NCBI GenBank assembly: GCA_903821355.1
Contig: CAIJKW010000018.1
Span: 1,453-65,452 of the forward strand
Length of the DNA: 64,000 nucleotides
Direction of reading: 5' to 3'
Source of the DNA: an uncultured bacterium
GTDB lineage: Bacteria; Patescibacteriota; Minisyncoccia; Phycocordibacterales; CAIZLB01
Part shown: positions 36,806 through 56,354 of the stretch, piece by piece
Numbering within the stretch: the stretch's first letter is position 1
Layout: each line of letters starts with the position of its first letter
Position numbers and translations under genes: made by a program
Notes under the pieces: model-generated
Told to the model about the DNA's origin: nothing
Seen by the model: the letters and a program-made list of their open reading frames with translations, nothing else
Databases searched by the model: none

Positions 36806-37402
36806 GTGTCATATAGAATTTACCACACGGAAGGTTATATTATAGACAGTTCGACCTCTGGAGAATCAAATAAGGTCTTTACGATTTTAACATCGGAACT
36901 TGGAACTATTATTGCAACTGCTCAAGGTGTTCGAAAGTTAGAGTCCAAGCTAAGGTACAGTTTACAAGACTTAACCTATGCCAAATTTGCTTTAGTTAGA
37001 GGAAAAGAAATTTGGAGAATTACGGGCGCTGAAAAAATCGTAAATATTTACGATAAGAAAATCCCTGTCCAAATTAGACAGTTTTTGGCACGCACGCTCT
37101 CTTTTATTAAGAGACTTTCGCCTGGAGAGGCTGTGAACAAAAGGGTTTTTGAAGAGTTCGACAATTTACACAAAGCTGTAATATCTTCAAAAATGATAAG
37201 AGACAACAGTGATTTGAATGCCGTTGAAAATTTGATGTATCTCAGAGTTGCTCATCATTTTGGCTACGGAACACCAAGTGAAAAACTGAAAGCTATTGTT
37301 TACTCTCCTTCTTGGAACATTGAGATTAGAGACAATGCGATAGATTTGATTGAAGAGACAAAAAAAGAGCTAGCTTCAATACTTTCTGAGACTCAATTGT
37401 GA
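36806..37402 (+). CDS. recO: DNA repair protein RecO (short form)
   Basis: N-terminal OB-fold pattern EGYIID...GESNKVFTILTSELGTIIATAQGVRK; C-terminal LRVAHHFGYG matches the RecO hLGY motif. Confidence 0.6.
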   Translation: MSYRIYHTEGYIIDSSTSGESNKVFTILTSELGTIIATAQGVRKLESKLRYSLQDLTYAKFALVRGKEIWRITGAEKIVNIYDKKIPVQIRQFLARTLSFIKRLSPGEAVNKRVFEEFDNLHKAVISSKMIRDNSDLNAVENLMYLRVAHHFGYGTPSEKLKAIVYSPSWNIEIRDNAIDLIEETKKELASILSETQL

Positions 37403-37483
37403 TTCAGCAGACGATTCAGCAGAATCGCCACGGGCTCGCCACGGGCTCATCCAAACGACGATTCTGCTGAATCGCCTACTGGG
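37401..37483. repeat. Palindromic intergenic repeat, copy A (two GGCGATTC-N4-GAATCGCC-type palindromes, tandem ACGGGCTCGCC, then TACTGGG)
   Basis: acgattcagcagaatcgcc / acgggctcgcc acgggctc / acgattctgctgaatcgcc tactggg; TATAAT at 37540-37545 sits 7 nt before ATG 37553. Confidence 0.7.
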
Positions 37484-37552
37484 TAGTCTTTCGGTTTCTT
37501 GTCTGTGGTCGTCTACTCATTTTTCTATACACAATATGCTATAATTTAAACC

Positions 37553-39487
37553 ATGAATGATGACGAAGGAAAAATCGAAGAATTAAAAAAGAAGCTTTAC
37601 TCGCACACTGAGAATCTACCAAAGATGAAGCATGTTAAACTGCATGAGCATCATGTTTTGGTTAACAGAGACTGGGATGAGAAGGTGGAACAAGAAGAAA
37701 TACCTAAAATAGAATATGGTAGAAATAGATTTTACAAAGTCCTAAAGGGCTTGATAGTTTTTTCTATTATTTTTCTTGTGTTTGCCATGGGTGTTGCGTA
37801 TTACTACTTCAATATCAATCCTAACGTTATTTCTGGTGCAAATATTGACATAAGCGTTTCTGGTCCAGTTGTTGTTTCATCTGGCCAAGAATTGTCATTG
37901 GATGTTAACATTTTTAACAATAATCCTTCAGTGATACAATCGGCGGATTTAATTGTGACATATCCAGATGGAACAAGAAGAGCTGATGATAAGGTAACAA
38001 GCTTGATCACAGACAGAATTTCAATTGGTGATATACAGGCCGGTGCAACAAGTAGGACTACAATTAAATCAATTATTTTGGCAGAAGAAGGTTCTACAAA
38101 AAATATTAATATTGCCCTAGAGTATAAAATGCCGGGGACAAACAGTCTTTTTGTAAAAGAAAAATCTTATCCGATGGGTATCAGTTCTGGTCCAGTTTCT
38201 ATTTCTGTCGATTCAATCAAGGAAATTACGCCAGAACAAAATACAAAGTTTCTAGTCTCTGTTAAATCAAATTCAGATAGTGTTATAAAAAATGTCGTAC
38301 TTAAGGCTGAATATCCATTTGGTTTTGATTTTACTTCATCTTCTCCGGTCCCATCCTCATCTAATATTGGATGGAGATTGGGAGATATTGCGCCAGGGGA
38401 GATAAAGAAGATAGAAATTACCGCAAAGATTTTTGGCCAGGCAAATCAAGAGAGGACAGTTAGATTTTTTGCAGGCACGGCTCAGACTAAGGATCCAAAT
38501 GAAATCGATACAATTTTTGCTTCAGCTGATCAGACCTTTAATCTAAAGGCTCCATTCCTTGGTGCTGATATTGCAATAAATGGTAATGGTAGTGAAATCG
38601 TTGTTGTTAATAGTGGTCAGTTTATACGAGGGGAAGTTTTGTGGAAAAATAATCTTGATGTCTCAATTCACGATGTTGCAATTGAAGCTAAACTAGGTGG
38701 TGTTAGTGCGGATAGGACGAGTGTTAATGCGGAAAATGGATTTTATAATTCAACTAACGATACATTGTATTGGGAGAAGAGTAATAATCCAGAACTTGAA
38801 GATGTTGCCCCAAACAAAAGTGGAACTTCTTATTTCAATATGAAAGTCTTTGATTTGACGAAAGATTTAGCCTCAAACCTAAGAAGGCCTGAAATTACTC
38901 TGAATTTTACAGTTAAGGGAAACAGATTAAATGAAAACAAAGTTTCAGAAGAAGTGACTTCACAAGCTTCTCGTAAAATTAGAGTTGCAACTGATATGGG
39001 GTTAGATACTAGACTTCTTTATAATGATGGCCCATTTCAGAATACTGGACCAATGCCTGCAAAGGTGGACAGCAGGACCACATACACTGTAAATGTTAAG
39101 GTCTACAATTCATATAACAATGTAAAGAATGCAATCTATACAGCAAAATTACCGATCTATGTTAATTGGCTTGGGGTAGTTAATCCTGTAACAGCAAGCT
39201 CAACGGTTGTTTATAATTTGGAAAATAGGACGATAACATGGAACGCGGGGGATGTTGCTCCAGGAGCTGGTTATATTTCTAATCCAAAAGAGATGTCCTT
39301 TCAGGTTGAATTTTTACCAAGTCTATCTCAACAGAATCAATCGCCAATTATAATTAATGGTCAAAGAATTGCTGGAACAGATAGTTTTACAAATACCGTA
39401 GTTAGTGCAGATGGATATTCCTTGAATACTCAAATAACTTCTGACTCCAAATATGATATGTCATTGGATAAAGTTGTTGGCAAATAG
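37553..39487 (+). CDS. Large membrane-anchored surface protein, hypothetical (N-terminal cytoplasmic segment, one TM, repetitive beta-rich ectodomain)
   Basis: 644 aa; TM LIVFSIIFLVFAMGVAYYYF; repeated V/S/T/N-rich beta-strand-like segments; promoter geometry implies a leaderless mRNA. Confidence 0.45.
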   Translation: MNDDEGKIEELKKKLYSHTENLPKMKHVKLHEHHVLVNRDWDEKVEQEEIPKIEYGRNRFYKVLKGLIVFSIIFLVFAMGVAYYYFNINPNVISGANIDISVSGPVVVSSGQELSLDVNIFNNNPSVIQSADLIVTYPDGTRRADDKVTSLITDRISIGDIQAGATSRTTIKSIILAEEGSTKNINIALEYKMPGTNSLFVKEKSYPMGISSGPVSISVDSIKEITPEQNTKFLVSVKSNSDSVIKNVVLKAEYPFGFDFTSSSPVPSSSNIGWRLGDIAPGEIKKIEITAKIFGQANQERTVRFFAGTAQTKDPNEIDTIFASADQTFNLKAPFLGADIAINGNGSEIVVVNSGQFIRGEVLWKNNLDVSIHDVAIEAKLGGVSADRTSVNAENGFYNSTNDTLYWEKSNNPELEDVAPNKSGTSYFNMKVFDLTKDLASNLRRPEITLNFTVKGNRLNENKVSEEVTSQASRKIRVATDMGLDTRLLYNDGPFQNTGPMPAKVDSRTTYTVNVKVYNSYNNVKNAIYTAKLPIYVNWLGVVNPVTASSTVVYNLENRTITWNAGDVAPGAGYISNPKEMSFQVEFLPSLSQQNQSPIIINGQRIAGTDSFTNTVVSADGYSLNTQITSDSKYDMSLDKVVGK

Positions 39488-39558
39488 CTTTTCGTACAAG
39501 ATTTATATCAGACAGGATTATCTTTTGATATTCCCGTAAAAGCTGATACTATATTGCT

Positions 39559-40914
39559 ATGGAAGAAATAATTGCTTTAGCTAAAAGACGTGGCTTTATA
39601 TATCAAGGCTCAGAAATATACGGCGGCCTTGCTGGAACTTGGGACTATGGACATTTAGGCCTAGCCCTTAAAAACAACATAAAAAATACCTGGTGGAGAC
39701 GTTTCGTTTTAGACAGAGAAGATATGTATGGCGTTGACGCTGCAATTCTCATGAATCAAAACGTTTGGAAGGCAAGTGGTCACGTTGCTGGTTTCTTTGA
39801 CCCGCTAGTTGATGACTTGAAAACCAATAAAAGATATAGAGCTGACTCTCTGCTTGAAGAGGCAGGCCTTAGCATAAAAGGCATGTCTATTGAAGACATG
39901 AATAACTTGATCAAAGAGAAGGGAATTAAAAGTCCTGAAGGAAATCCCCTTGGAGAAGTTAGGCAATTTAGAATGATGTTTACAACTCACGTTGGAGCAA
40001 ATCAAGATGAGGCTTCTGTTTCATACTTGCGACCTGAGACTGCACAAGGAATGTTCGTTAACTTTAAAAATATTTTAGATTCTTTCCATCCAAAGATTCC
40101 TTTTGGTATGGCTCAAATTGGAAAGGCATTTAGAAATGAGATTGCTCCTAGAGATTTTATATTTAGAACTCGTGAATTTGAACAAATGGAGATCGAGTAT
40201 TTTGTTAATCCAAAAGCGTGGGAGACATCCTTCGATCATTTTAGAAATGAAATGCATGCATTTGCATCTGATGTTGGACTCAATCCAGCAAAAGTCCATG
40301 AACATGAAATTGCTCCAGAAGACTTGGCACACTATTCTAAGAGAACAATAGACTTCGAGTTTGATTTTCCAATGGGTATAAAAGAACTTTATGGATTGGC
40401 TTACAGAACTGATTTTGATTTGAAGAGTCATAGTGATGCGTCCGGTGTTGATTTGTCTTTTTTTGACGAAGAAACAAAAGAGCGATACATCCCTCATTGT
40501 ATAGAGCCTTCCCTTGGAGTCGACAGAACTGTTTTGGCGGTTTTAACAGATGCCTATTCTGAGGATGATGTTGGTGGGGAAAAAAGGGTTTATTTAAAAC
40601 TTTCTCCAAAGATTGCACCCGTTTTGATTGCGGTTTCACCGTTGCTTAAGAATAAGACTCAATTGGTTGAGAAGGCTAGGGAGGTCTATGGAATTTTACG
40701 AAAGGAATTTCCTGGTAGAATAATGTTTGACGATAATGGAAATATTGGAAAGAGATATAGAAGACAAGATGAAATTGGTACTCCATTTTGTATAACTATA
40801 GATTTTGATACGGTAGAGAAGGATCAGACAATGACACTTAGATATAGAGACTCTGCCACACAAGACAGACTTTCAATTGAGCAAATTGTTAAGGTTGTGA
40901 AGGAGGCGATTTAG
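39559..40914 (+). CDS. glyS: Glycine--tRNA ligase, alpha2 (archaeal/eukaryote-like) type
   Basis: N-terminus IIALAKRRGFIYQGSEIYGGLAGTWDYGHLG characteristic of alpha2 GlyRS; class II motifs. Confidence 0.85.
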   Translation: MEEIIALAKRRGFIYQGSEIYGGLAGTWDYGHLGLALKNNIKNTWWRRFVLDREDMYGVDAAILMNQNVWKASGHVAGFFDPLVDDLKTNKRYRADSLLEEAGLSIKGMSIEDMNNLIKEKGIKSPEGNPLGEVRQFRMMFTTHVGANQDEASVSYLRPETAQGMFVNFKNILDSFHPKIPFGMAQIGKAFRNEIAPRDFIFRTREFEQMEIEYFVNPKAWETSFDHFRNEMHAFASDVGLNPAKVHEHEIAPEDLAHYSKRTIDFEFDFPMGIKELYGLAYRTDFDLKSHSDASGVDLSFFDEETKERYIPHCIEPSLGVDRTVLAVLTDAYSEDDVGGEKRVYLKLSPKIAPVLIAVSPLLKNKTQLVEKAREVYGILRKEFPGRIMFDDNGNIGKRYRRQDEIGTPFCITIDFDTVEKDQTMTLRYRDSATQDRLSIEQIVKVVKEAI

Positions 40915-40928
40915 CAAAATCTCCCCAT

Positions 40929-40985
40929 GGCGATCCTGCTGGATCGCCTACTGGGCGATTCAGTAGAATCGCCTACACCGGCTCG
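40929..40985. repeat. Palindromic intergenic repeat, copy B
   Basis: ggcgatcctgctggatcgcc tactggg cgattcagtagaatcgcc tacaccggctcg; TATAAT at 41032-41037. Confidence 0.7.
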
Positions 40986-41060
40986 ACTATCGGGCGTTCT
41001 GTAGACACTGCACCCTGGCTGGGCTTTGCAGTATAATCAATCTGGTGCTATTCTTTAGGT

Positions 41061-42134
41061 GTGCCAGATAAAAGTAATTCGTTAAATCTAAATATAAGCT
41101 TCACTACGCTCTTTAAGATAGCGGTCTTTTTGCTTGGGGTATATCTATTATTTGTTCTAAGGGGTCTCGGTTTGATAATACTTACAGGTATTGTGATTGC
41201 TTCTGTTGTGGAACCTGCGGTTAAATGGTTTGTAAAAAGAAATCTTCCCAGAGCCCTTTCTGCTATATTGGTCTACGCTTTAATTATAGGTTCGCTCACT
41301 TTGGTGTTCTCCTTTGCAGTTCCTCCTCTTTTAGGAGAGATGGTTTCAGCTGTTAATAGTATTCCTAAATACGTTAAGACCATTGATATATTCACTCCTA
41401 TAAACAAAAATGCTTATAGCGGTACAAAGTTGTTTTTCCCAGATATCCCTACAACAATCTCAGTCGGCGATGTTATTTCAAATACAACCGGTGCAATCTC
41501 AAATTTCTCTGGTGGTATGTTTGATACTGTGGCAGGATTCTTTGGTGGAATCATTAGTTCTATTTTAGTTCTGGTTATATCTTTCTACCTTTCCGTTAGA
41601 GAGGATGGGGTTGGAGAATTTTTATCTATTGTTACTCCGCCTGAGAAAGAAAAATATGTTAGAGGCTTGTGGCAAAGAGCTGAAACCAAAATTGCTAGAT
41701 GGATGCAAGGTCAGGTAATGTTGGGGCTAGTTGTTTTTGTCTTTATATATATCGGATTGGTTTTAATTGGTGTGAAGCATCCATTGCTTCTTGCTATGAT
41801 TGCTGGAATATTTGAATTAATTCCAGTTGTGGGAATGACTCTATCCGCAATACCCGCATTCTTTATGGGGGTATTAGATGGAGGAATAGGAGTCGGATTG
41901 TTTATCGTCGGACTTTACTTGATAGTGCAACAAATAGAGGCACATGTGTTTTATCCTTTGGTTGTTAAGAAATTAATTGGAGTTCCACCACTTCTGGTTA
42001 TTATTTCACTTGTTGCCGGCGCTGAACTTGCCGGAATTGTTGGTGCGATACTTGCTATTCCGGTCTCTGTTGCACTCATGGAATACATAGATGATGTAGA
42101 GAGACGAAAGAAAGATGATTTGGTGAAGGGGTAG
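41061..42134 (+). CDS. AI-2E family (PerM/YhhT-like) transporter
   Basis: 357 aa polytopic membrane protein with the AI-2E topology; apparent GTG start. Confidence 0.5.
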   Translation: MPDKSNSLNLNISFTTLFKIAVFLLGVYLLFVLRGLGLIILTGIVIASVVEPAVKWFVKRNLPRALSAILVYALIIGSLTLVFSFAVPPLLGEMVSAVNSIPKYVKTIDIFTPINKNAYSGTKLFFPDIPTTISVGDVISNTTGAISNFSGGMFDTVAGFFGGIISSILVLVISFYLSVREDGVGEFLSIVTPPEKEKYVRGLWQRAETKIARWMQGQVMLGLVVFVFIYIGLVLIGVKHPLLLAMIAGIFELIPVVGMTLSAIPAFFMGVLDGGIGVGLFIVGLYLIVQQIEAHVFYPLVVKKLIGVPPLLVIISLVAGAELAGIVGAILAIPVSVALMEYIDDVERRKKDDLVKG

Positions 42135-42149
42135 AAAAAATACAGGATA

Positions 42150-42177
42150 CCGCCGCAGGCAGGCCTGCCTGCGGCGG
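42150..42177. repeat. Perfect 28-nt GC-rich palindrome between the AI-2E gene and metG
   Basis: ccgccgcaggcaggcctgcctgcggcgg equals its own reverse complement. Confidence 0.6.
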
Positions 42178-42181
42178 GGGT

Positions 42182-43708
42182 ATGAAAATCGATAATAAAA
42201 ATAATAGAATGTCACAAACTCAAAAAACTTTTTATATTACTACGACTCTGCCTTATGTAAACGCAGATCCTCATATTGGATTCGCGATGGAGATAATCAG
42301 AGCTGATGTCATAGCTAGATACAAGAAATCATTAGGATATGATGTGTTTTTTAATACTGGCACTGATGAACACGGTTTAAAATTATTTGAAACAGCAAAA
42401 GAAAAAAAGATGGATATCATGGATTTTTTGAATGAAGTTTCCTCAACTTACAAAAATCTTCTGGTGGATCTGAATATTTCTAGAGACGTGCATTTTATAA
42501 GAACTACAGATGAACATCACAAAAAAAGCGCACAAGCACTTTGGAAAAGGGTTAAAGACAACGGTTATATTTATAAGAAAAACTATCAAACAAAATATTG
42601 TGTTGGGTGTGAAGAAAATAAGACTGACTCAGAACTAGTTGACGGCAAGTGTCCATTGCACCCTAATCGTGAACTAGAAATTATCGATGAAGAAAACTAT
42701 TTTTTTAAACTCTCCGCACTCGCCGATGATCTGTTTACTCTTTTTGAGTCTAATCCAAAACTAGTTATTCCAGAGACAAGACTAAATGAAATGAAGGAGT
42801 TTGTGAGAAGAGGTCTGGAGGATTTTAGTATTTCAAGGCTTAAATCAAAGATGCCATGGGGAATCGATGTTCCAGATGATACAGAACATGTCATGTATGT
42901 TTGGTTTGACGCTCTTACAAACTACATCTCTACTTTAGGTTGGCCAGAAAATGAAAATGACGATGGGAAAAACGGCACTGACAACGGAGATTTTAATAAG
43001 TATTGGGTCACGGGATCGCCTGTTCAGTATTGTGGAAAAGATAACACAAGGTTTCAATCAATTACATGGCAGTCGATGCTTTTGGCTGCAAAGTTGCCTA
43101 CCACACATAGTATTATTATAAATGGTTGGATTACAGGGGAGGGTGGGGTGAAGATGTCTAAATCGTTAGGAAACACCATTAATCCAAGTGAAGTCGCGAA
43201 AGAATATGGGGCCGACGCGTTAAGATTTTTTGTAACAAAAGAATTGCAACCATTTGAAGATTCTCCTTTCGCAATAAATAAATTCAAAGAAGTCTATAAT
43301 GCCCACTTGGCAAACGGAATTGGCAATCTAGTTTCTAGGACAATGAAGATGGCGACTTCCTATGAAGCCAAACTTTCTGAGGAGGACATTAAGGCTGTAC
43401 ATCTTTCAGTAGACATTTTAAATGGTACAGAAAATAAAGATGTAGAAAACTTTAGATTAGATTTGTATGTTCAAGAAATTTTTGACGAATTTACAAAACT
43501 AGACCAGTTCATCCAAGAAGAGCAACCATTTAAAAAGTTTAAGGTAAATCCAGAAGAGGCTCGCAATGATTTGGTGTACATACAAAAACAATTGCTGACG
43601 GGTGTTTATAAGTTGTCTGTTGTAATGCCTGAGACATCAAAAGTTGTTGTTGATTGTATCGTAAATCACAAAATGCCAGAAGCCCCATTGTTTTTAAGAA
43701 AGGATTAA
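42182..43708 (+). CDS. metG: Methionine--tRNA ligase
   Basis: PYVNADPHIGF (HIGH-type), zinc-knuckle Cys cluster, VKMSKSLGN (KMSKS); true start may be MSQTQ at 42209. Confidence 0.85.
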   Translation: MKIDNKNNRMSQTQKTFYITTTLPYVNADPHIGFAMEIIRADVIARYKKSLGYDVFFNTGTDEHGLKLFETAKEKKMDIMDFLNEVSSTYKNLLVDLNISRDVHFIRTTDEHHKKSAQALWKRVKDNGYIYKKNYQTKYCVGCEENKTDSELVDGKCPLHPNRELEIIDEENYFFKLSALADDLFTLFESNPKLVIPETRLNEMKEFVRRGLEDFSISRLKSKMPWGIDVPDDTEHVMYVWFDALTNYISTLGWPENENDDGKNGTDNGDFNKYWVTGSPVQYCGKDNTRFQSITWQSMLLAAKLPTTHSIIINGWITGEGGVKMSKSLGNTINPSEVAKEYGADALRFFVTKELQPFEDSPFAINKFKEVYNAHLANGIGNLVSRTMKMATSYEAKLSEEDIKAVHLSVDILNGTENKDVENFRLDLYVQEIFDEFTKLDQFIQEEQPFKKFKVNPEEARNDLVYIQKQLLTGVYKLSVVMPETSKVVVDCIVNHKMPEAPLFLRKD

Positions 43709-43711
43709 TTT

Positions 43712-44536
43712 ATGAAATTTCAATATATAGATACTCACGCCCATGTAAATTTCCCAGAATTTGATGAAGATAGGGAAGTCGTTTTGAGAAATGCCTTGGA
43801 CGAAGGAGTTTTTGTTGTTAATGTTGGAACTAATTTAGAATCATCTAGACGGGCTATTTCTATCGCAGAACAATATAACGAAGGGGTTTATGCGATTGTT
43901 GGAATACATCCTCACGAGGTGATGGAATTAGAAAAAAACGGTTTGATTGATAGTACATTGGCAGAGCTTAAGGAGCTGGCAAAACACGGAAAGGTTATTG
44001 GAATAGGGGAATGTGGTTTGGACTTCTTCAAAATTGAAGAATACAACAAAGGCGTAACGGTTGAAGATGTGAAAAAAGTCCAAGAAAAAGTGTTCAGGGG
44101 TCAGATTGATATTTCCCTAGCTCTTGACAAACCTCTAATGTTACATTGTAGAGACAGCTACAGCGAAACTTTAGAAATTCTTTATAATTATTCAAGGGTA
44201 CCTAGTGTAAAGTTGCGAGGGAATGCACACTTCTTTGCTGGTTCATTAGAGCAGGCAAAGGCATTCATAAGTTGCGGATTCACAATATCTTTCACAGGGG
44301 TTATCACTTTTGCTAAGAATTACGAGCTTTTAATCAAAGAGATTCCTCTAGATAAGATTCTTTCTGAAACGGATTGTCCATATGTGGCGCCAGTGCCTTT
44401 TAGGGGTAAAAGAGCAGAACCTTTGCATGTTAAGTTGGTGGTTCAAAAAATAGCTGAAATTAAGGGTATTTCTACCGAAGAGGCTAGGGAACAGATAGAA
44501 AAGAACGTAAAACAGATGTTTTTTGACTCGGTCTAA
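43712..44536 (+). CDS. tatD: TatD-family metal-dependent hydrolase/DNase
   Basis: YIDTHAHVNF N-terminal metal-binding motif; 274 aa. Confidence 0.8.
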   Translation: MKFQYIDTHAHVNFPEFDEDREVVLRNALDEGVFVVNVGTNLESSRRAISIAEQYNEGVYAIVGIHPHEVMELEKNGLIDSTLAELKELAKHGKVIGIGECGLDFFKIEEYNKGVTVEDVKKVQEKVFRGQIDISLALDKPLMLHCRDSYSETLEILYNYSRVPSVKLRGNAHFFAGSLEQAKAFISCGFTISFTGVITFAKNYELLIKEIPLDKILSETDCPYVAPVPFRGKRAEPLHVKLVVQKIAEIKGISTEEAREQIEKNVKQMFFDSV

Positions 44537-44609
44537 TCTCTCTTTGTGGCCAAAGGAGTGGTTAGGGCATAAGGTTGCTCATATTAACCTTTTGTGTTAG
44601 TCTTCTGAC

Positions 44610-45209
44610 ATGGCAAAAAAAGTTGAACTTACACAAGAGGACCAACAGCTTGAGAACAGGGTTTATGAACTCGGTTTTCACTTCGTCTCAACAATAGTTG
44701 AGGATGAGGTCGCTGTACAATTCTCGCATCTTAAGTCACTTATTGAGAAACGCGGAGGACAATTTATCGCAGAAGAAATGCCTAAATTTAAAAACCTTGC
44801 ATATCCAATAAGTAAGACAGTTAAGACGGATAGAAAGAATCATTTATCATCATATTTTGGATGGGTTAAGTTTGAAATTAATCCTGAAGAGATAATTCCA
44901 TTAGAAAAAGAGATAAAGGCCTTTGGCCCAATGCTTAGATTTCTTTTGATAAAGACTGTTAAGGAAAATACTTTCCTTGGAGCAGTAGCAGAAATCAAAG
45001 TAGATTCATCAAAAATAGTTAAAATTGTTGATGAGCCTGCAGAGGACGTAGTTTCAGAGGGTGATTCTGAGGGATCTCATGCAGAGACAGCAAAAGCTGT
45101 TGAGGCCACTCCTGAAGTCGCTCCAAAAGACGTTTCTGAAGTTGAGTCTCTTGATGCTGTGAATGAGATTGTAGATACTGAAAAAATGGGTAATATCGCA
45201 ACTGAATAA
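44610..45209 (+). CDS. rpsF: 30S ribosomal protein S6 with an acidic C-terminal extension
   Basis: YELGFHF...NLAYPISK...MLRFLLIK matches the S6 core; first gene of the rpsF-ssb-rpsR operon. Confidence 0.7.
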   Translation: MAKKVELTQEDQQLENRVYELGFHFVSTIVEDEVAVQFSHLKSLIEKRGGQFIAEEMPKFKNLAYPISKTVKTDRKNHLSSYFGWVKFEINPEEIIPLEKEIKAFGPMLRFLLIKTVKENTFLGAVAEIKVDSSKIVKIVDEPAEDVVSEGDSEGSHAETAKAVEATPEVAPKDVSEVESLDAVNEIVDTEKMGNIATE

Positions 45210-45274
45210 GTGATCACCTACTGGGTGATTCTGCTGACGATTTAACAAAATCGTCACAGGGCTCGCCTACAGGG
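45210..45274. repeat. Palindromic intergenic repeat, copy C (degenerate)
   Basis: gtgatcacc tactggg tgattctgctga cgatttaacaaaatcg tcac agggctcgcc tacaggg; TATAAT at 45301-45306 sits 6 nt before ATG 45313. Confidence 0.6.
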
Positions 45275-45312
45275 TGGTATTAATCAAAACTAAAGTATTA
45301 TATAATATCACT

Positions 45313-45804
45313 ATGTATTTAAACAAAGCAATAATTATCGGAAATTTAACTCGTGATCCAGAAATGAAGGCATTGCCTTCAGGGATGAGTGTCACATCAT
45401 TCTCAGTTGCAACCAACAGAGTTTGGAAAGACAAGAACGGAGCAAAGCAAGAGGCAGCAGATTATCATAATGTGGTAGTCTTCGGTCGCCAAGCTGAAAC
45501 ATCTGCTCAATATTTAAAAAAAGGAAGTAGCGTATTGGTAGAAGGTAGAATGCAAACTCGTTCTTGGGACGGAGCCGACGGTAAAAAGCTATATAGAACA
45601 GAAGTTATAGCTGACAACATTCAATTTGGTTCAAGACCAACTGATGGTGGAGCTGGATCTTTTGGTGGAGGAGCATCAAATGGCGGAAATGCAGCCGCTG
45701 GAGCATCAGCTAAAAAAGCAGATGATACAGGTAACGCATTAAATCAATTAGATTCAATAGAATATCCAGAAGAAGAAATTAATCCAGAGGATATACCATT
45801 CTAA
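45313..45804 (+). CDS. ssb: Single-stranded DNA-binding protein
   Basis: MYLNKAIIIGNLTRDPE OB-fold start, Gly-rich linker, C-terminal acidic tail ending DIPF; start set to 45313 rather than the ORF-track start 45274. Confidence 0.85.
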   Translation: MYLNKAIIIGNLTRDPEMKALPSGMSVTSFSVATNRVWKDKNGAKQEAADYHNVVVFGRQAETSAQYLKKGSSVLVEGRMQTRSWDGADGKKLYRTEVIADNIQFGSRPTDGGAGSFGGGASNGGNAAAGASAKKADDTGNALNQLDSIEYPEEEINPEDIPF

Positions 45805-47554: not shown

Positions 47555-47590
47555 AAAGTAAAAAACACCATTGATTTGGTGCTTTTTACC
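47555..47590 (-). terminator. Rho-independent terminator downstream of recA
   Basis: aaaaacaccattgatttggtgcttttt; reverse complement is a hairpin plus T-run. Confidence 0.55.
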
Positions 47591-47615
47591 GTCCAGATTA
47601 TTACCTGAAATGTTT

Positions 47616-48863: not shown

Positions 48864-48954
48864 AATATTGATAAATTAATTTAATTTATAAAAAACCGAT
48901 TCTTATTCTTATTAATGAGACCGATGATTTTACTACTTAAAATAATTTTATTAT

Positions 48955-49449
48955 TTAAATAGTTTTACCATTAGATTTACTACTAGTTGCATTGTCAGAT
49001 TTGTCGCTAAGTTTAACAGCAGGCTTGTCTACAGGCTTGGCCGCGAGATTATCCACGGACTTATCAGTAGTTTTATCGTCATCACTACCATTGTAGACCA
49101 TCTGTAGTTCTTTTTTTACATGAGCTCCAAATTTATCCGTAGCTTCTAGTTTAATGACATTATATCCCGGATAGAGAAGGACTTTTTCTTTAAATTGCCC
49201 AGTCTCATCTATAGGTATCAACCTGTCATTTAATGTAACCACCGAGACATTTTTGACGATACCGGAAACATCTACTGCACTGTCTTTGGCACTAGTTGTG
49301 CTTGGACTTTGTATTGTGATTTGAGGACCACTAATTATTTTTTTTGATTGAAATCCTGCGTATCCGCCAATTGCGCAAATTATAATGACGACAAGAACAT
49401 TTCTAATTATTGTTTTTCCTTCTTTTATACTTTTGCGCGTTCCTATCAT
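48955..49449 (-). CDS. Hypothetical secreted or membrane-anchored protein
   Basis: 164 aa; N-terminal TM/signal helix; no motif. Confidence 0.35.
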   Translation of the reverse strand: MIGTRKSIKEGKTIIRNVLVVIIICAIGGYAGFQSKKIISGPQITIQSPSTTSAKDSAVDVSGIVKNVSVVTLNDRLIPIDETGQFKEKVLLYPGYNVIKLEATDKFGAHVKKELQMVYNGSDDDKTTDKSVDNLAAKPVDKPAVKLSDKSDNATSSKSNGKTI

Positions 49450-49513
49450 ACAATTGTTGTTTAAAGTTTCTATAAAGAATTTCTAAAGAAATCCCAAATA
49501 TTTAATGTAATAA

Positions 49514-52048
49514 TTAATCTTCCTCGACCTTATTTTCTATTATATCAGAGTTTCCTGAAGAAGTGTTATATTCTGTGCTTTCTGCTTCGGACGACCTTGT
49601 CATGTTGCCGTTTGCATTACTATTGTAGCTGTTGTCTAAAATATCATTTCCATTTGAGCCTCCATTCTGGGTGTTGTTTTGGCCACCATTTTGACCACCC
49701 TGCTGATTTCCGCCATAGCTTAGTATTTCTCTTGGTTTCGAGCCGTCAGAAGCCCCGATAACTCCCTTATCTTCAAGAATATCCATAAGCCTAGCTGCAC
49801 GAGCATATCCAATCCTCAACTTTCTTTGAAGATATGAAGTTGAAGCGCGCCCCGCTTCTATAACAAGCTGTTTTGCTTCATCGTACAAATCATCCTCGTC
49901 CTCATCATCAGATCCTCCAAAAGATGAACTAAATACAGCATCTGGAGTAGGGGATGCACCTTGCTCGCCATTAAATGATATTTCTTGAGGCAATGAATCA
50001 GTGGAATCTATTAAGTATTTAACCAATTTCTTTGTCTCGTTCTCTGTAACATAGGCACATTGAATTCTAATTGGTGTTGGTATATCTCCTGAAAGATAAA
50101 GCATATCTCCAGCACCCAAGAGTTCTTCAGCTCCTCTCATATCAAGAATGGTCCTTGAGTCAATTTGCGATGCAACCTGAAGTGCGATACGCGCAGGAAC
50201 GTTTGCCTTAATAAGACCTGTAATAACGTTAACAGAGGGACGCTGTGTTGAAATAATAAGGTGAATTCCAACAGCTCTAGACATTTGAGCTAGCTTAACG
50301 ATCCCAGACTCTAATTCTCTAGGATATGCTTGCATAATATCTGCCAACTCGTCCAAAACAATAACTATATAAGGCATTGTTTCAGGCGCTTCTTCACCTG
50401 CAATATAGCCATCGCTCTTCCTTCTGTCTAAAAGAGGTTTCAATATGTTCTTATGATATGAATCGATGTCTCTGATCCCGTTCTTTTCTAGTATATTGTA
50501 TCTCCTTTCCATTTCTTTTGCCGCCCATTTAAGTGAAAGGATAGACTTCTTAGCGTCAGTAATAACAGGAGTTAGAAGATGGGGAATCTTGTTATACATT
50601 GTCAACTCAACTCTCTTAGGGTCAATCATGATGAATTTAAGATTGTCAGATGAGTTCTTGTACAAAAGGGAAGCGATAATTGCGTGAATTGTAACTGATT
50701 TTCCAGACCCTGTTGCTCCAGCGATAAGCATGTGAGGTGCTTTGGCGAGGTTGGTAAAATATGACCTTCCCGAGATACCTTTTCCTAAGGCAACCATAAG
50801 AGGCTTTTCTGATTTTTGATATTCCTCTTGGGCCAAAAGAGAGCCAAGTCCAACTGTTGTTTTGATGGTGTTTGGAATTTCAATTCCGACAAGTGACTTA
50901 CCAGGGATTGGCGCTTCAATTCTTATTGGGTGTGCAGCGAGTGCAAGGGAGAGGTTGTTCTGAAGTCCTAGAATTTTTGAAAGCTTAACACCTTCTGCTG
51001 GCTTAAGAGCATATCTTGTAACTGATGGTCCGATTGAAACTTCATCCATCTCTACATCTATTCCAAAGTTTTGCAGAGTTCTTTTTATTATATTTGCATT
51101 TGCTTTGATGTCTCCAACTCCAGGCTTACCTTTGTCTTGTTCTAATATAGAAAGTGGGGGAGGAACAAAAGCTTTTCCACTCCATGTGCTTTTTGCTTTT
51201 AGATCAATTGAGTCATCTTCTTTTTCTTTTGACGATTTTCCATCCGCTCCATTTACTTTATTTTGATCTTGATGGTTTATGTTTCCTGAGGCTCCATCTT
51301 TGCCACTATCTGCATTTCCTGGTTTTGATGTCGCAGCATCCAGTACCGCCTTGTTTCCAATAGCACTAGCTTCCGCATCTTTAATTGATTTAGAAATCTT
51401 CTCATCTTCCGTCGCTTTTATTACCCCATCAGCTGAGCCTGCCTCTGCTTCAATATTTGATTTTTTGCTAAACAATTTCCAAAACATTAAGTGCTCTTTT
51501 TTGATTGATGAGTCATATATAATGAGTATTGATATCAATGAAAGTGCGATTGTGATTACATAGCTAGTTGGATAATCAAAAAGCTTAACTAGGGGAATTG
51601 CAACTATCTTTCCAATGAAACCTCCGCTGTCTAGGTTGATCAAACTTATTATACCCAAAGATGATAGTAGGAATAGTAGGGCACCTAGTGATTTTGATAG
51701 ATAAAACTTCCTGTTTCTCTCTCCAAAAAAGGCAACAGATAGTAGTATAAAGGTTAATGGTATTAGATAGTATCCAAGACCTAGAAGTTGGGACAATGCA
51801 TTGTATATTGCGCTCCCTGCAGATCCACCTCTGTTCAATGAAGCAAAAAGAAAGAATATTGCCAATACAAACATGGTAATACCCCAAACACTTTGTATAG
51901 TGCTGGATTTAAGTACTTTTTGCTCCACCACTCCTTCTTCTGTGGACAACTTATAAGGACCCCTTTTGTTATCTCTGGTGGTATCCCTTGAGTTATCTCT
52001 TTTGTATTCATTATCTTTTTTGTATTTTTTCTTATCTCGATTTGCCAT
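49514..52048 (-). CDS. ftsK: DNA translocase FtsK/SpoIIIE
   Basis: N-terminal TM helices; Walker A AGATGSGKS; C-terminal gamma (winged-helix) domain LVIEAGRASTSYLQRKLRIGYARAARLMDILEDKGVIG. Confidence 0.85.
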   Translation of the reverse strand: MANRDKKKYKKDNEYKRDNSRDTTRDNKRGPYKLSTEEGVVEQKVLKSSTIQSVWGITMFVLAIFFLFASLNRGGSAGSAIYNALSQLLGLGYYLIPLTFILLSVAFFGERNRKFYLSKSLGALLFLLSSLGIISLINLDSGGFIGKIVAIPLVKLFDYPTSYVITIALSLISILIIYDSSIKKEHLMFWKLFSKKSNIEAEAGSADGVIKATEDEKISKSIKDAEASAIGNKAVLDAATSKPGNADSGKDGASGNINHQDQNKVNGADGKSSKEKEDDSIDLKAKSTWSGKAFVPPPLSILEQDKGKPGVGDIKANANIIKRTLQNFGIDVEMDEVSIGPSVTRYALKPAEGVKLSKILGLQNNLSLALAAHPIRIEAPIPGKSLVGIEIPNTIKTTVGLGSLLAQEEYQKSEKPLMVALGKGISGRSYFTNLAKAPHMLIAGATGSGKSVTIHAIIASLLYKNSSDNLKFIMIDPKRVELTMYNKIPHLLTPVITDAKKSILSLKWAAKEMERRYNILEKNGIRDIDSYHKNILKPLLDRRKSDGYIAGEEAPETMPYIVIVLDELADIMQAYPRELESGIVKLAQMSRAVGIHLIISTQRPSVNVITGLIKANVPARIALQVASQIDSRTILDMRGAEELLGAGDMLYLSGDIPTPIRIQCAYVTENETKKLVKYLIDSTDSLPQEISFNGEQGASPTPDAVFSSSFGGSDDEDEDDLYDEAKQLVIEAGRASTSYLQRKLRIGYARAARLMDILEDKGVIGASDGSKPREILSYGGNQQGGQNGGQNNTQNGGSNGNDILDNSYNSNANGNMTRSSEAESTEYNTSSGNSDIIENKVEED

Positions 52049-52243
52049 ATTCCCTTTATTTTAACACGTATTATCTTAGGTTAAAAATTAATGCAAATTA
52101 AAACACGATGTCCTATACTATGGGACTTGTCAGATGTGCTGACTTATATATAATGTCTTTGAACTTGCCAGTCAGTTTTGACTTTTTGGGCAAATCTATT
52201 AAAGACAAAATTGAGGGGTAGTTAAAAGACATAATAAAAGACT

Positions 52244-53170
52244 ATGAATAACCTATCAGACAATGATTCAAATAAGGGGGTGGACAAGACACTAGATTTA
52301 ACTTCTTTGAGTTTTTTTAATTCTGACCCATATTTCAACTTTGTATATAAGAAATCAGAAAGGCTTTGCATGGCAATCTATTTGATAACAGACTTCTTTC
52401 CCGTTAAAGATTCTATAAAGGACAATATGAGAAAGGCTGGTACAGATCTAATTAAAATTTCATTGTCCTTAATAACAGCGTCATCTTCCTACAGGAAGGA
52501 CATCTTAAATGATATTAGTCGTATTTGTTTGGAGGTTGTTTCTTTATCTAAGGTGGCATCTAACTTAGGTATGACATCATTACCAAATCACAATGTACTA
52601 GAAAGTGAAATTAAAAATTTTATTGGAGTTATAGAAGAGAGGGAAATGCCAAGTACAACAGGACAAGGTTTTGTCCTTAATGAAGAAATACTTGGAACAA
52701 GAACATGTGATATTTCTGATATAACTCAAATTGCAAGACAAGATCCTTTACCACAATCTTACACGTCAAAATCCTACTATCATGTTGAAGAAAAAACTGA
52801 GGTCAAAATGAACACTCAAGTAGGGGATTCATCGGGATTGGATAAGAAGGTTGTACAAGTTAAAGATCTGTCAAAACCGCAAGATGTTTCAAAACATGGA
52901 AATGTGGTAAAAACTCAAAATAATCTAGGTAGCACAGGTAGTGGTACAAATACTGTTGTTGGTACAAAGTCTGTAATGCAAAAAAATGAGAGACAGCAAA
53001 TCATATTGGATATAATTAAAGAAATAGGAGAGTCTTCAATTAAAGACATATCTGACAATATAAAGGATTGTAGTGAAAAGACTATTCAAAGAGAGCTTAA
53101 TACTCTTATATATGACGGTGTCCTTAAAAAGATAGGGGAAAGGCGTTGGAGCAAATATGTTTTAGCTTAG
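52244..53170 (+). CDS. Hypothetical protein with C-terminal winged-helix DNA-binding-like domain
   Basis: 308 aa; C-terminus ILDIIKEIGESSIKDISDNIKD.SEKTIQRELNTLIYDGVLKK resembles a wHTH. Confidence 0.35.
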   Translation: MNNLSDNDSNKGVDKTLDLTSLSFFNSDPYFNFVYKKSERLCMAIYLITDFFPVKDSIKDNMRKAGTDLIKISLSLITASSSYRKDILNDISRICLEVVSLSKVASNLGMTSLPNHNVLESEIKNFIGVIEEREMPSTTGQGFVLNEEILGTRTCDISDITQIARQDPLPQSYTSKSYYHVEEKTEVKMNTQVGDSSGLDKKVVQVKDLSKPQDVSKHGNVVKTQNNLGSTGSGTNTVVGTKSVMQKNERQQIILDIIKEIGESSIKDISDNIKDCSEKTIQRELNTLIYDGVLKKIGERRWSKYVLA

Positions 53171-53317
53171 TTTTATATAAAACTTACTATGGCGATGGGT
53201 AAAAACTGATAGTAATTGAGAGACCGTGTCTTTTATGGTTCAAAAAGTCATATAAAAGACATGGTGATTTTTGCTTTGAGTTTCAAAAAGTCCTTAATTG
53301 AAAAGCTTAAACAGAAT

Positions 53318-53347
53318 TTGACACTTTTAATAATTGTTGACTATATA
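53318..53347 (+). promoter_or_regulatory. Sigma70-like promoter inside a 577-bp intergenic region
   Basis: TTGACA-17/18-TATATA followed by an 8-bp stem hairpin ctgtacac...gtgtacag. Confidence 0.35.
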
Positions 53348-53783
53348 GGCGTTTTTCTGTAATATTACTGACTGTACACCGTCATTATGTGTACAGGCGC
53401 AGATTGGGGCTTATTTTAGTAACCATGTTGCAAACTAAGGCCCTTAAGGATATCGTTAAATAGCCTGGTACTTTGACAAATCAATAGATAGTTTCTCATA
53501 ATCAGTAATTCCGCCAATTATCCTCCAATTCAGACTGACGGCATCCCAAATGACATAGTCCAGTTATTCCGTTGATTCCTGTGAAAACAGTGGGTCAACA
53601 AGTGCGAATCCGTAGAGATACTCAATTTAAATTTAATTACTAAAAATATTTAACTTTTTGTTTAGTGTCTTTACGGGTTCGTACGGTTAGTATTAAAAAC
53701 CCGAGGATATTCTATTCCACACATTATTAATTTTAAAAGTTAAGTGGATGAAAATATCTTTAATAAATTTTATAAAAATTCAT

Positions 53784-55655
53784 ATGAAAAAGATTTCTTC
53801 AATAATCGTAATGTTGGCTCTTGCATTCGCTCTTACTGTTACAGTATCAGCTGATTCAGGATACTCATTTACAAAGACTCTTAAATTAGGCTCAAGAGGT
53901 GCAGATGTTTCTGCTCTTCAAACAGTTCTAGTTTCCAAAGGTCTTCTAACTATGCCTGCAGGTGTAGCTATGGGATACTACGGATCATTAACAGTGTCAG
54001 CTGTAAAGGCATACCAAGCTTCAAAGGGTATCTCAACAGTAGGACAAGTTGGACCAGCTACTCGCGCAGCATTGAATGCTGAAGGAGCAGTTGTTTCAAC
54101 TAACGTTGCAGGTTGTGTTGCAGGTGCATTGTTCAGTTCAGTAACTGGACAACCTTGTACTACAACTTCAACAGGTGGAACAACATCTACAGTAGGAATC
54201 ACAACTCCTGGAGTTGCAGGAACACTTGATATTGCAAGAGGTTCAGCTGTAGGAAATGGAACAACATACAATGATGGTCAATCAGGTTCTATTATATCTT
54301 ATGACCTTAAGGCTGGAGCTTCAGATGAAGCTGTTACAGCTTTGAGTGTTGATTTCAGTGTAAGACCATGGTTGTACGTATCATCACTTTCTTTTGTTAA
54401 TCAACAAACTGGTGCAACAATTGCAACAGTTTCAGGCCTAACAGCTGCTAATTTCACAGAAATTACAGTAGGAAGTGAGTACAGAATAACTGTTCCTGTA
54501 ACAGGAATGATTGTTCCAAAAGGACAAAGAGTTACTGTAATAGTAAATGCTACTATGGCAGGCTCAAACAGAACTGGCCCAGTTAATGTTTTTATGACAA
54601 GAGCTGAGGCTAGAGCTGTTGATGGAACAGGGGTTACAACTACAAGTCAATTACTTGCACAAACAGATAAATTTGTTTATGGAGGTGTATCAAACTCAGC
54701 TTTGATTACAACTCTTGATGTAAGTTCACCACAATCATCAATTATCCAAACAAGTGTTTCTGCTGTAACAAACAATGTTTCTCTTGCGGTATATAGCTTC
54801 AAGTCACAAAACATTGCTTCTACATTGCAACAAATTGCTATGAAGATTAGTACAGCTACTTCAGGTGCTGCTTATGCTCCAGAAAATGTATTCCAAAACG
54901 TACAATTGGTTTCAGGATCAACTGTTCTTTCTAATGGTACATTCGGAACATCTGCAAATGGTTCAACCACTGTAACATTTAACAACTTCAACCTAAATCT
55001 TCCACAAGATGTTTATGTTCCTGTTAAAGTTATAGCTTCAGTACAAAAGAATGTAAGTGGCGTTACAGCTTCAACAAGTCTTACTGTAAACAGTACAAAT
55101 CTTGTTGGAATTGATGCTAACTCAAATAGTTTGACTGTTAATAGTTCAGGAACTGTAATCTCAAGTGCGATATTACAATTCTCAGCTTCAGGAGCTACTT
55201 TGACAGCACCTTCATTCAGTATTACACCTCCATTATCTAACAGTACTGGAATCTACAAGACAGCAATCTTTAGTGGTGCATTTACTCTTACAGCTGGAAA
55301 CAATCCAATCTATGTAAGTAGAACACCTGCAACTGCTTTGACTGCAACTTCATCAAACGTAGCTTCTTCAACAGCTACTCTTGACAGTATCGGAGCTGGA
55401 AATGTTTTGAGTAACGATCCAACAGGATTCTACCAAATAACTCCAGGTCAATCACGTACATTTAGTTTCAGTGGTACATTGACAAACACTTCGACAACTA
55501 CAGGAAATGTATCTAATGCCACAGCTGGTATTACTACAATATACTTTACTGACGATACAGGTACAGCACAAAAGTCATCTATATCAACTGGTCTAGATGC
55601 ACTTAATGCATACTTTGGTGTTGTTAACTCACGTGTAACTCTAGGAACTCTATAG
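53784..55655 (+). CDS. Secreted peptidoglycan-binding-domain protein with a long Ser/Thr/Val-rich beta-rich region
   Basis: Signal peptide MKKISSIIVMLALAFALTVTVSA; PG_binding_1-like LKLGSRGADVSALQTVLVSKGLL...AVKAYQASKG; start set to the signal-peptide Met rather than 53748. Confidence 0.5.
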   Translation: MKKISSIIVMLALAFALTVTVSADSGYSFTKTLKLGSRGADVSALQTVLVSKGLLTMPAGVAMGYYGSLTVSAVKAYQASKGISTVGQVGPATRAALNAEGAVVSTNVAGCVAGALFSSVTGQPCTTTSTGGTTSTVGITTPGVAGTLDIARGSAVGNGTTYNDGQSGSIISYDLKAGASDEAVTALSVDFSVRPWLYVSSLSFVNQQTGATIATVSGLTAANFTEITVGSEYRITVPVTGMIVPKGQRVTVIVNATMAGSNRTGPVNVFMTRAEARAVDGTGVTTTSQLLAQTDKFVYGGVSNSALITTLDVSSPQSSIIQTSVSAVTNNVSLAVYSFKSQNIASTLQQIAMKISTATSGAAYAPENVFQNVQLVSGSTVLSNGTFGTSANGSTTVTFNNFNLNLPQDVYVPVKVIASVQKNVSGVTASTSLTVNSTNLVGIDANSNSLTVNSSGTVISSAILQFSASGATLTAPSFSITPPLSNSTGIYKTAIFSGAFTLTAGNNPIYVSRTPATALTATSSNVASSTATLDSIGAGNVLSNDPTGFYQITPGQSRTFSFSGTLTNTSTTTGNVSNATAGITTIYFTDDTGTAQKSSISTGLDALNAYFGVVNSRVTLGTL

Positions 55656-55709
55656 TAACTAAGGTTTAACGTTTGCTAAAATACTAATTAAGTATCTAAG
55701 TAAATTAAC

Positions 55710-55740
55710 AAAAACCACCTCGCAAGGGGTGGTTTTTGTT
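55710..55740 (+). terminator. Rho-independent terminator
   Basis: aaaaccacc-tcgcaa-ggggtggttttt. Confidence 0.6.
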
Positions 55741-55935
55741 ATGTCAAAAATTACGACAATTAATATTCTATAGATAATATTTTTCACAATATCCCATTGC
55801 TAAGATTATTGTCATTACTACTTATGGGTATATAATTAATTAGGCATAGATCTTTACAAGATTCTTTATTGTATTAATTGAAAGATTAAGACAATAAATT
55901 TGCCAAATTTTCGAAGTATGTGTCTAGGTTAGTTT

Positions 55936-56235
55936 TTGAAATTCAAACCAATTGCAATCAAACAATCAGAAAACATGAAATATCTATTACTGCCGGTGGT
56001 AATGCTGATTAAGTTGTATACATTGGGCGTCGTGAGACTTTCCGAGTATATCCTTGGACATTCAAAATCTTTGGTGCCTTGGTCAGAGCTTGGCTGGCAC
56101 GATGTTCACGATTTCTTTATCAGCTGTCTCGTTTCTGCTTTCACTGTCTTTTCGATTTTCTTCATCGCCTTTATCTGCATGTTGACTATTGAAGATATAG
56201 ACATCGCTGGAGATTTGGAAAAACCCAAAATCTAG
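55936..56235 (+). CDS. Small membrane protein, hypothetical
   Basis: 99 aa, two hydrophobic helices. Confidence 0.3.
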   Translation: MKFKPIAIKQSENMKYLLLPVVMLIKLYTLGVVRLSEYILGHSKSLVPWSELGWHDVHDFFISCLVSAFTVFSIFFIAFICMLTIEDIDIAGDLEKPKI

Positions 56236-56295
56236 AACCTCTAACTCTTTCTTAATTCCAACCCACTGCCGACCATCGTGTCGGCAGTAATTTTT

Positions 56296-56354
56296 GTGAT
56301 TATGCATAATCACCCCGTGGCGATTTTGAAGAATCGCCTACCGGGTGCTATAAT
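56296..56354. repeat. Palindromic intergenic repeat, copy D, with an extra upstream palindrome and a TATAAT box
   Basis: gtgattatgcataatcac cccgtg GGCGATTTTGAAGAATCGCC TACCGGG tgc TATAAT; the palindrome overlaps a TTGAAG -35-like hexamer. Confidence 0.7.

Follow-up and report, generated by a model that had tools for sequence, protein, structure and literature searches.

What are the palindromes that lie between genes in an uncultured bacterium of the Patescibacteria, a group with tiny, tightly packed genomes? We addressed this using a 64,000-nt stretch of contig CAIJKW010000018.1, hereafter the window. A preliminary description of this DNA had pointed to four intergenic loci, here A to D, where a palindrome is followed by TACTGGG or TACCGGG. 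It left a choice between a shared operator and an element resembling repetitive extragenic palindromic (REP) sequences or miniature inverted-repeat transposable elements (MITEs). On the evidence below, we conclude with moderate confidence that the loci are arrays of a REP-like repeat family of Patescibacteria, or Candidate Phyla Radiation (CPR) bacteria. The family is constrained at the level of DNA to form a hairpin and would be partly co-opted to supply -35 elements.

The window is ~36% G+C, densely coding and contains 7 tRNA genes. Genes near the repeat loci are housekeeping genes, encoding IleRS, RecO, a DUF11/CLIPPER surface protein, a class II aminoacyl-tRNA synthetase (aaRS), an AI-2E transporter, MetRS and TatD, together with rpsF and ssb. 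The nearest source-named homologues of SSB derive from metagenome-assembled genomes (MAGs) of Patescibacteria, Paceibacteria and Taylorbacteria. Within the species collection, the closest genome is the lake MAG CAJBHC01, with 70-82% nucleotide identity. All counts for the source genome cover the 64-kb window. Relatives were examined as fetched loci (prefix L), which are genome fragments amounting to ~1 Mb.

A hairpin-constrained repeat unit

The unit is a 20-nt palindrome with an 8-bp stem and a 4-nt loop, G[G/A]CGATTY-N4-RAATCG[C/T]C, often followed by CTACTGGG. The window has about nine units. All fall within the four loci first named, and all are extragenic or overlap stop codons. Searching for GGCGATTYNNNNGAATCGCC with up to three mismatches returned 14 strand-matches, compared with a mean of 0.42 and a maximum of 4 in shuffles, which bears out the original sighting. 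These matches equate to seven palindromes (37410-37429, 37457-37476, 40905-40924, 40929-40948, 40954-40973, 45236-45255 and 56319-56338). Degenerate relatives of the unit are found at 45210-45218 and 56296-56313. Consistent with this, significant window matches to a covariance model of 71 family units, run with filters off, were confined to the four loci. A weak match (E=8.4) inside ORF 20074-20640 (open reading frame, ORF), GGCGATTTTGAAATACTGGG at 20241-20261, resembles a promoter-type unit without its 3' arm and may be due to chance.

To define the constraint on the palindrome, we compared 71 distinct units from the window and the fetched loci, picked by their 3' arm and tail only. Changes on both sides of a pair accounted for 35 cells, compared with 9.3 in shuffles (0/500), and involved four stem pairs. 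In the true register, pairing reached 88.9%, versus 53% or less in slid registers. At pair 3/18, 62 units have C-G and 7 have T-A; at pair 7/14, 63 have T-A and 5 have C-G. Four states occur at pair 8/13, with C-G in 39 units, T-A in 17, T.G in 9 and G-C in 3. Four compensated stems are present inside the window alone (GATTC/GAATC, GATCC/GGATC, GATTT/AAATC and TGATTA/TAATCA). The loop sequence is free and at times inverted (AGCA versus TGCT). All four loci fold much better than shuffles on both strands, with z scores from -3.8 to -8.6. Since both arms change jointly within one genome, the constraint is on hairpin pairing and not on a fixed half-site.

Pair 2/19 is A.C in 44/71 units, with CTAC next, in this sample anchored on the 3' arm and tail. 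Hence, a pair that is mostly A.C and a one-sided tail give the unit a direction. The opposite strand has GTAG directly 5' of the hairpin.

The four loci differ in how units are assembled (all coordinates that follow are on the + strand). Locus A opens with a truncated remnant, TGATTCAGCA (37400-37409), whose TGA terminates the RecO-like ORF 36806-37402. Next come hairpin unit A1, GACGATTC-AGCA-GAATCGCC (37410-37429), and the hairpin-less derivatives ACGGGCTCGCC and ACGGGCTCATCC with an AAAC linker typical of arrays in relatives (37430-37456). The locus ends with hairpin unit A2, GACGATTC-TGCT-GAATCGCC plus a TACTGGG tail (37457-37483), which scores 47.4 bits with the covariance model. The A2 loop is inverted with respect to A1, and on the - strand A2 reads CCCAGTAG followed by the hairpin.

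At locus B, three units are spaced by 24-25 nt (40905, 40929 and 40954). The first, B0, is degenerate (GGCGATTT-AGCA-AAATCTCC; 40905-40924) and contains the stop codon of the class II aaRS (HisRS-like) ORF, TAG at 40912-40914. Unit B1 (GGCGATCC-TGCT-GGATCGCC plus TACTGGG; 40929-40955) is a compensated stem variant. Unit B2 (GGCGATTC-AGTA-GAATCGCC plus TAC; 40954-40976) begins 25 nt after B1. Locus C starts directly after the rpsF stop codon (45207-45209), with a decayed unit GTGATCACC, TACTGGG and a half unit TGATTCTGCT (45210-45235). These precede unit C1, GACGATTT-AACA-AAATCGTC, then ACAGGGCTCGCC and TACAGGG (45236-45274), which adjoins TGGTATTAAT (45275-45284).

Locus D lies immediately downstream of a canonical terminator-like hairpin with a T-run (56265-56288), which is not a family member. 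It consists of an X-type unit, GTGATTA-TGCA-TAATCAC (GTGATTATGCATAATCAC in locus D), with a CCCGT linker (56296-56318), and a promoter-proximal unit, GGCGATTT-TGAA-GAATCGCC, with TACCGGG and TGC-TATAAT (56319-56354). In the latter, TTGAAG is 17 nt upstream of the -10. The layout suggests an array placed between a terminator and a promoter. The junction ACCCCGTGGCG of locus D recurs in L103, L114 and L131.

Across the + strand of the window, TACYGGG occurs 8 times, on 4 occasions immediately after a palindrome. Other units have the tails CAAAC, CCGT or ACGGG, and GGGCTCGCC is found at 37432 and 45259.

Array turnover and promoter geometry

Syntenic 20-kb regions were fetched by means of SSB homologues with 86-91% identity (L139, L141, L143 and L145). 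Unit number at orthologous spacers differs sharply. Between the RecO and CLIPPER genes, there are 2 units in the window, 0 in L139, 3 in L141, 1 in L143 and 1, decayed, in L145. The spacer from aaRS to AI-2E holds 3 units in the window and 0 in each of the four relatives. From rpsF to ssb, the window has 1 unit plus remnants, L139 has 0, L141 has ~1 (decayed), L143 has 4 and L145 has 0. No good units were detected across the 20 kb of L139 or the 20 kb of L145. In L139, the TAA at the start of the RecO to CLIPPER spacer is followed directly by TGGTATAAT. A further array is present in L063, between orthologues of window ORFs 26442-27008 and 27017-27811. The corresponding window spacer is 8 nt, where TGATATAAT overlaps the stop codon. 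At every compared spacer, with an array or with none, the homologous -10 and ATG are retained intact. Hence, the promoter is independent of the repeat. The turnover of arrays between close relatives likewise means that arrays are dispensable for the promoter.

Repeats also reach into coding sequence. The class II aaRS ends in ...KEAI* inside a unit (window 40900-41036), compared with ...TLQ* in L141 (5769-5818) and L143 (5495-5545). The old C-terminal coding sequence (ctttgcagta) persists downstream of the window array, where it now contributes to the TATAAT. The final aaRS codons appear to have been replaced by an insertion linked to the repeat.

We next describe the promoters beside the arrays. 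The candidate RecO-CLIPPER promoter (37537-37555, + strand) has an extended -10, TGCTATAAT, at 37537-37545, followed by 7 nt and ATG 37553 of a 644-aa DUF11/CLIPPER protein. It is kept in relatives with or without an array. That of ssb (45301-45315, + strand) has TATAAT at 45301-45306, then 6 nt and ATG 45313, and is identical in array-free relatives. A third has TGCTATAAT at 56346-56354, 8 nt and ATG 56363, which opens a 30-aa ORF only. Hence, the 6-7 nt spacing given in the preliminary description holds for the first two start codons and not for ATG 56363. At locus B, a leader of ~24 nt would precede GTG 41061.

This geometry extends well beyond the arrays. A TATAAT-like hexamer is found 6-8 nt before the ATG at a dozen or more other gene starts in the window, about half with TGn upstream. 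They include 11986, 22312, 24046, 26023, 27017, 27909, 58915 and 63467 on the + strand and 8075 and 19983 on the - strand, among others. Gene starts of this kind have no Shine-Dalgarno spacing, and at 27001-27019 the preceding gene's stop codon and the -10 overlap. The putatively leaderless geometry is a genome-wide property and not specific to the repeat. It predicts widespread leaderless mRNAs in the organism and, given the many genes with a -10 at 6-8 nt before ATG, widespread leaderless translation in the lineage. The expectation of leaderless mRNAs was reasonable when first put forward, but their proposed coupling to the repeat is not upheld, as the geometry is found across the window. 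Insertion-tolerant intergenic DNA lies only upstream of the -10. Hence, repeats and promoters are expected as neighbours.

The spacing between array and promoter is nonetheless fixed. In 12 distinct arrays of the tail-anchored set, the -10 begins 9-11 nt past the last hairpin, and in 10/12 the gap is exactly 10 nt, composed of the tail TACTGGG plus TGn. When the tail was relaxed, 18 arrays had this spacing, with an ATG 6-8 nt after the -10 in most. A promoter and ORF lie downstream in 17 arrays, compared with 3 on the far side (p=0.0026). Arrays between divergent genes are still oriented to the gene with the adjacent -10 (L083, L103, L112 and L113). Copies are biased to promoters and are not sited mainly at convergent gene ends. 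Together with the GTAG-plus-hairpin anatomy, the insertional behaviour and an end exactly at the TGn of the extended -10, this agrees with the earlier suggestion of a REP/MITE-like element at promoters.

The unit next to the promoter is distinct. TTG occupies hairpin positions 8-10 in 12/18 promoter-proximal units and in 2/90 others (p=5e-10). In the promoter-proximal variant, GATTTTGNNGAATC, this TTG and the -10 are 17 bp apart. Locus D has such a unit, and a promoter scan also picked TTGAAG-17 nt-TATAAT, with TG, at 56326-56354. Genes downstream of promoter-proximal units, named from reading of the sequences without Pfam, are functionally unrelated: ruvA, def, xerC, hpf, uppP, and genes for a DsbA-like protein, a helicase, an ITPase and membrane proteins. 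The array at the xerC promoter is conserved in two species (L017 and L056).

We propose the following explanation. What gives the unit its strand is the usually mismatched A.C at pair 2/19 together with the 3' tail CTACTGGG. Units and truncated derivatives, GGGCTCGCC and similar, pile up head-to-tail with a 24-25 nt period. They occupy the only DNA left free in a compact genome, a few bases from a stop codon to the extended -10 (TGnTATAAT) of the next gene, and this next gene appears to be transcribed without a leader. Arrays are gained, grow and disappear over the divergence of close relatives, and those that survive are oriented to the downstream gene. Usually, the loop of the promoter-proximal unit has gained a TTG at exactly 17 bp from the -10, and some units thus appear to have been co-opted as a -35. 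We infer that spread is brought about by an enzyme recognising the folded single strand, perhaps a HUH transposase like the REP-associated tyrosine transposase (RAYT) or another, and by slippage.

Distribution of the family and alternative explanations

We scanned 185,579 species genomes with GRCGATYYNNNNRRATCGCCTAC and obtained 99 loci, a number near the chance expectation for a pattern of that size. However, the low-G+C matches concentrate in CPR MAGs, with several per genome. These MAGs are CAJBHC01, CAINHC01, CAIZVZ01, CAINCE01, JBDKKW01 (Parcubacteria) and PMZP01 (Taylorbacteria), with others from Saccharibacteria, Tagabacteria, Paceibacterota and lake bins. A metagenome scan added 36 further loci. 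In viral contigs, there were 3 isolated matches, all tail-less and judged to be chance.

Two classes can be distinguished. Class 1, in the clade of the window, comprises head-to-tail arrays in which GACGATTCTGGTGAATCGTCC-AAAC is repeated with a period of 24-25 nt, ending ...GAATCGCC-TACTGGG. In class 2, from other CPR, the family hairpin and tail form stem P3 of a ~100-nt element with three stems. Briefly, P1 is an outer helix, P2 is a hairpin that varies yet is always paired, and P3 with its tail is invariant. Examples are L054 7478-7573, L078 7413-7542 (-), L046 3824-3928 (-) and L073 6243-6365, among others. Using an anchored script with partner shuffling, we found that P1 covaries: 5.09/7 positions are paired versus 4.14 ± 0.19 with shuffled partners (0/2000), and 8 different helices occur. 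P1 varies even inside one genome (JBDKKW01; L041, L070 and L073). RNAalifold, applied to a MAFFT alignment of class 2, recovered P3 alone because P2 length varies. The conserved junctions are RAGYGAGGA and CUACUGGGUUCGAAG. The class 2 junction motif AAGTGAGGA is also present inside an L143 array; hence, the two classes are linked.

In two genomes, class 2 is itself embedded in a longer repeat of ~175 nt, which adds three further small hairpins. This repeat has sharp ends (TTTATTC...GCGAGGTAGTTTATT), is present in many copies and contains no ORF. The two genomes that share it in conserved form are CAINCE01 (L092, L024, L055 and L098) and Ga0265338 (L105, L109, L110 and L134). Copies are found at contig ends, where they break assemblies, and are at times in tandem. 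Such observations allow a second interpretation. The invariant hairpin and CUACUGGG could serve as the recognition module of a non-autonomous element, as yet undescribed and spread across CPR, with class 2 (~100-175 nt) as its full form. It would be moved by an enzyme other than RAYT, insert preferentially just upstream of the -10, for instance into opened or exposed DNA, and routinely rewrite the -35 side. We regard this as a tentative possibility.

RNA-level roles are less likely. Here, transcripts of the upstream gene would have the hairpins at their 3' end, where these would serve as terminators, insulators or 3' stabilisers, as do some E. coli REPs. Sense-strand hairpins are stable, U.G occurs at stem pair 8/13 in 9/71 units and a co-directional gene precedes most arrays. 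REPs that carry a GTAG tag are also thought often to act as RNA (PMC3733652). However, on the sense strand A.C, and not G.U, is the most frequent non-standard pair. Ordinary terminators are used elsewhere in the genome, while no unit has a T-run and none was called terminator-like. Locus D sits just past the canonical terminator with the -10 just downstream, and so may be untranscribed. The arrays between divergent genes, pointing at the gene with the adjacent -10, also fit this idea poorly. We consider an RNA-level element unlikely.

A related proposal is that the units are fragments of a structured element of non-coding RNA, or of single-stranded DNA, with class 2 as the whole and the hairpin as its P3. 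The window arrays would then be decayed or duplicated pieces. The covariation of P1 through 8 helices, with differences within JBDKKW01, the constant pairing of P2, the invariance of P3 and its tail, and AAGTGAGGA in the L143 array all speak for it. However, no Rfam family matches: searches at gathering thresholds of the window and 11 related loci, and at E up to 10 of one class 2 element, gave only tRNAs and chance matches. A covariance search found no full class 2 copy in the window. The element is in mixed orientation relative to genes. Being multi-copy, sharp-ended (TTTATT...GAGGTAGTTTATT) and able to break assemblies, it looks like a mobile repeat. The proposal is improbable.

We also rate as improbable the shared operator, or regulon marker, of the preliminary description. 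In this model, a dimeric helix-turn-helix regulator would bind the duplex 8-4-8 palindrome, centred at about -32.5, and repress a regulon of leaderless genes. The palindrome does overlap the -35 position, with a constant spacing to the -10, the orientation of arrays is biased to promoters and the xerC arrangement is conserved in two species. However, the arms covary within one genome instead of each matching a consensus. In close relatives the number of tandem units beside orthologous promoters ranges from 0 to 4, the -10 and ATG being preserved where there is none, and the downstream genes are unrelated in function. Furthermore, units cover the 3' ends of coding regions, and the hairpin and tail also occur in non-promoter elements of other CPR.

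CPR bacteria are thought to depend on DNA uptake. An uptake sequence for competence is nevertheless very improbable, since isolated 8-mer copies of the arm inside genes were not seen in the window, and so is a guide-RNA array, CRISPR-like or resembling TIGR systems (tandem interspaced guide RNA), given that only the 4-nt loops vary and the short arrays are dispersed among housekeeping genes. TIGR arrays, which have been reported in CPR, have two alternating repeats of 8-12 nt, two 9-nt variable spacers, 36-nt units and an adjoining Nop-domain (Tas) gene (PMC12045711; Faure et al. 2025). Shared features are the CPR hosts and tandem short repeats with small palindromic parts. Conversely, the arrays described here have a 24-25 nt period with neither 9-nt spacers nor a 36-nt unit, and their neighbours are RecO, aaRS genes, rpsF and ssb, with no adjacent Nop-domain gene.

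Other features of the window touch the family less directly. A two-gene cassette (204 aa and 427 aa; 56954-58844) has 84-86% protein identity to a cassette of CAJBHC01 (L063 416-2288). Its neighbours differ in CAJBHC01 and the position has no cassette in L139 and L145; the pair of genes may form a mobile module. Other perfect hairpins, G+C-rich although the genome is A+T-rich, have stems of 12-14 bp and no sequence relationship to the family (8848-8878, 16877-16905, 20023-20049 and 42150-42177). One of them runs over the start of ORF 8848-9201, and another is in the spacer separating AI-2E from MetRS. In the ORF-poor stretch 56360-56950, a 120-nt segment (56490-56620) is 86% identical to L019 2178-2296 (-). 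It contains, in order, TTGACA-16 nt-TATTAT with TG, ATGGGATGTCCC..., the G+C-rich hairpin GCCCGAGCTC-CAAAA-GAGCTCGGGC, which pairs perfectly, and a stretch rich in T. The segment has no Rfam match and may be a small RNA or a 14-codon ORF.

Comparison with known repeat systems

BOX elements of Streptococcus pneumoniae are modular intergenic repeats with modules of 45-60 nt, often near the 5' ends of genes. Compared by description, the two systems have in common an internal module in variable tandem number, stable secondary structure and a location near 5' gene ends. However, the 45-60-nt BOX modules are unrelated in sequence, and neither a GTAG tag nor fixed -10 spacing is described for BOX. 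Correia (CREE) elements of Neisseria are MITEs of 100-150 bp, bounded by terminal inverted repeats and accompanied by a TA duplication. Again by description, these and 'mobile promoters' are similar in being small non-autonomous repeats whose ends create or complete sigma-70 hexamers. The difference is that here the -10 is native and the repeat gives only the -35 side. The window arrays do not fit the definition of a MITE, as they are without terminal inverted repeats or target-site duplications. Sharp ends, TTTATT...TTTATT, occur only in the related 175-nt element of KR5_bin-306 and Ga0265338. The units are not intrinsic terminators either: no family unit is among 22 terminator-like sites, and their tails are CTACTGGG or CAAAC, with no T-run.

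The closest known system is the GTAG-tagged REPs, which include REP and bacterial interspersed mosaic elements (BIMEs) of E. coli, GTAG-1 of Pseudomonas and SMAG of Stenotrophomonas (Di Nocera et al. 2013, PMC3733652; Nunvar et al. 2010, PMC2817692). These are 20-40 bp palindromes with a stem of 6-13 bp and a loop of 2-4 nt, scattered between genes in many copies per genome, and >90% of REP members have a GTAG (or GTRG) end (PMC3733652). Also described are sub-families with compensated stems, G.T pairs, stop codons donated by the tag and copy numbers that vary (PMC3733652). The family reported here is likewise a short extragenic palindrome of matching dimensions (8 bp and 4 nt) with GTAG directly 5' of the hairpin on one strand. 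It too has compensated stem sub-families and G.T pairs, here 9 U.G at pair 8/13. Copies are clustered, their termini overlap or donate stop codons and their number varies between related genomes.

Several points weigh against our REP-like interpretation. In described REPs, most copies form head-head or tail-tail dimers and are found downstream of ORFs, where the flanking genes are unidirectional or convergent (PMC3733652). Here, head-to-tail arrays, absent or rare in described families, dominate, and lie upstream of the -10 of the next gene, at a fixed 10 nt and pointing at that gene. The tag is on only about half of the window units, with CTAC after 4 of ~8. In the fetched loci CTAC follows 149/368 strand-hits (184 palindromes), a frequency biased by the tag-including pattern with which most related loci were gathered. 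The orientation bias and the conserved xerC array could also reflect selection for a function and not a selfish element. Both promoter activity and leaderless transcripts are predictions from sequence. Finally, a RAYT gene accompanies most GTAG families, though REPtrons, in which the repeats flank a RAYT gene, are missing in some REP-bearing strains (PMC3733652), and in the genome fragments searched, the window and ~1 Mb of fetched loci, we found no RAYT or Y1 transposase. Specifically, a RAYT-like catalytic-Tyr motif had no match in the window or any CPR-type locus. The Y1_Tnp domain, sought by phmmer with a query from the unrelated chance locus L068, was absent from the window and 138 loci, and Pfam identified no transposase among 10 ORFs flanking unusual arrays. 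If no RAYT is present, the question becomes what mobilises the repeats.

Almost no regulatory DNA or mobile small repeats have been described in Patescibacteria, and our literature search for REPs, MITEs or leaderless transcription in this phylum found nothing relevant. If our explanation is correct, a repeat shared by several CPR classes, with fast turnover and landing at the -35 site, would be a simple means of creating or tuning promoters. The family is also a potential hypervariable marker for strain typing in metagenomes. Patescibacteria are not among the phyla listed in the GTAG-REP survey (PMC3733652), and the arrays would extend GTAG-type palindromic repeats to a phylum without earlier reports.

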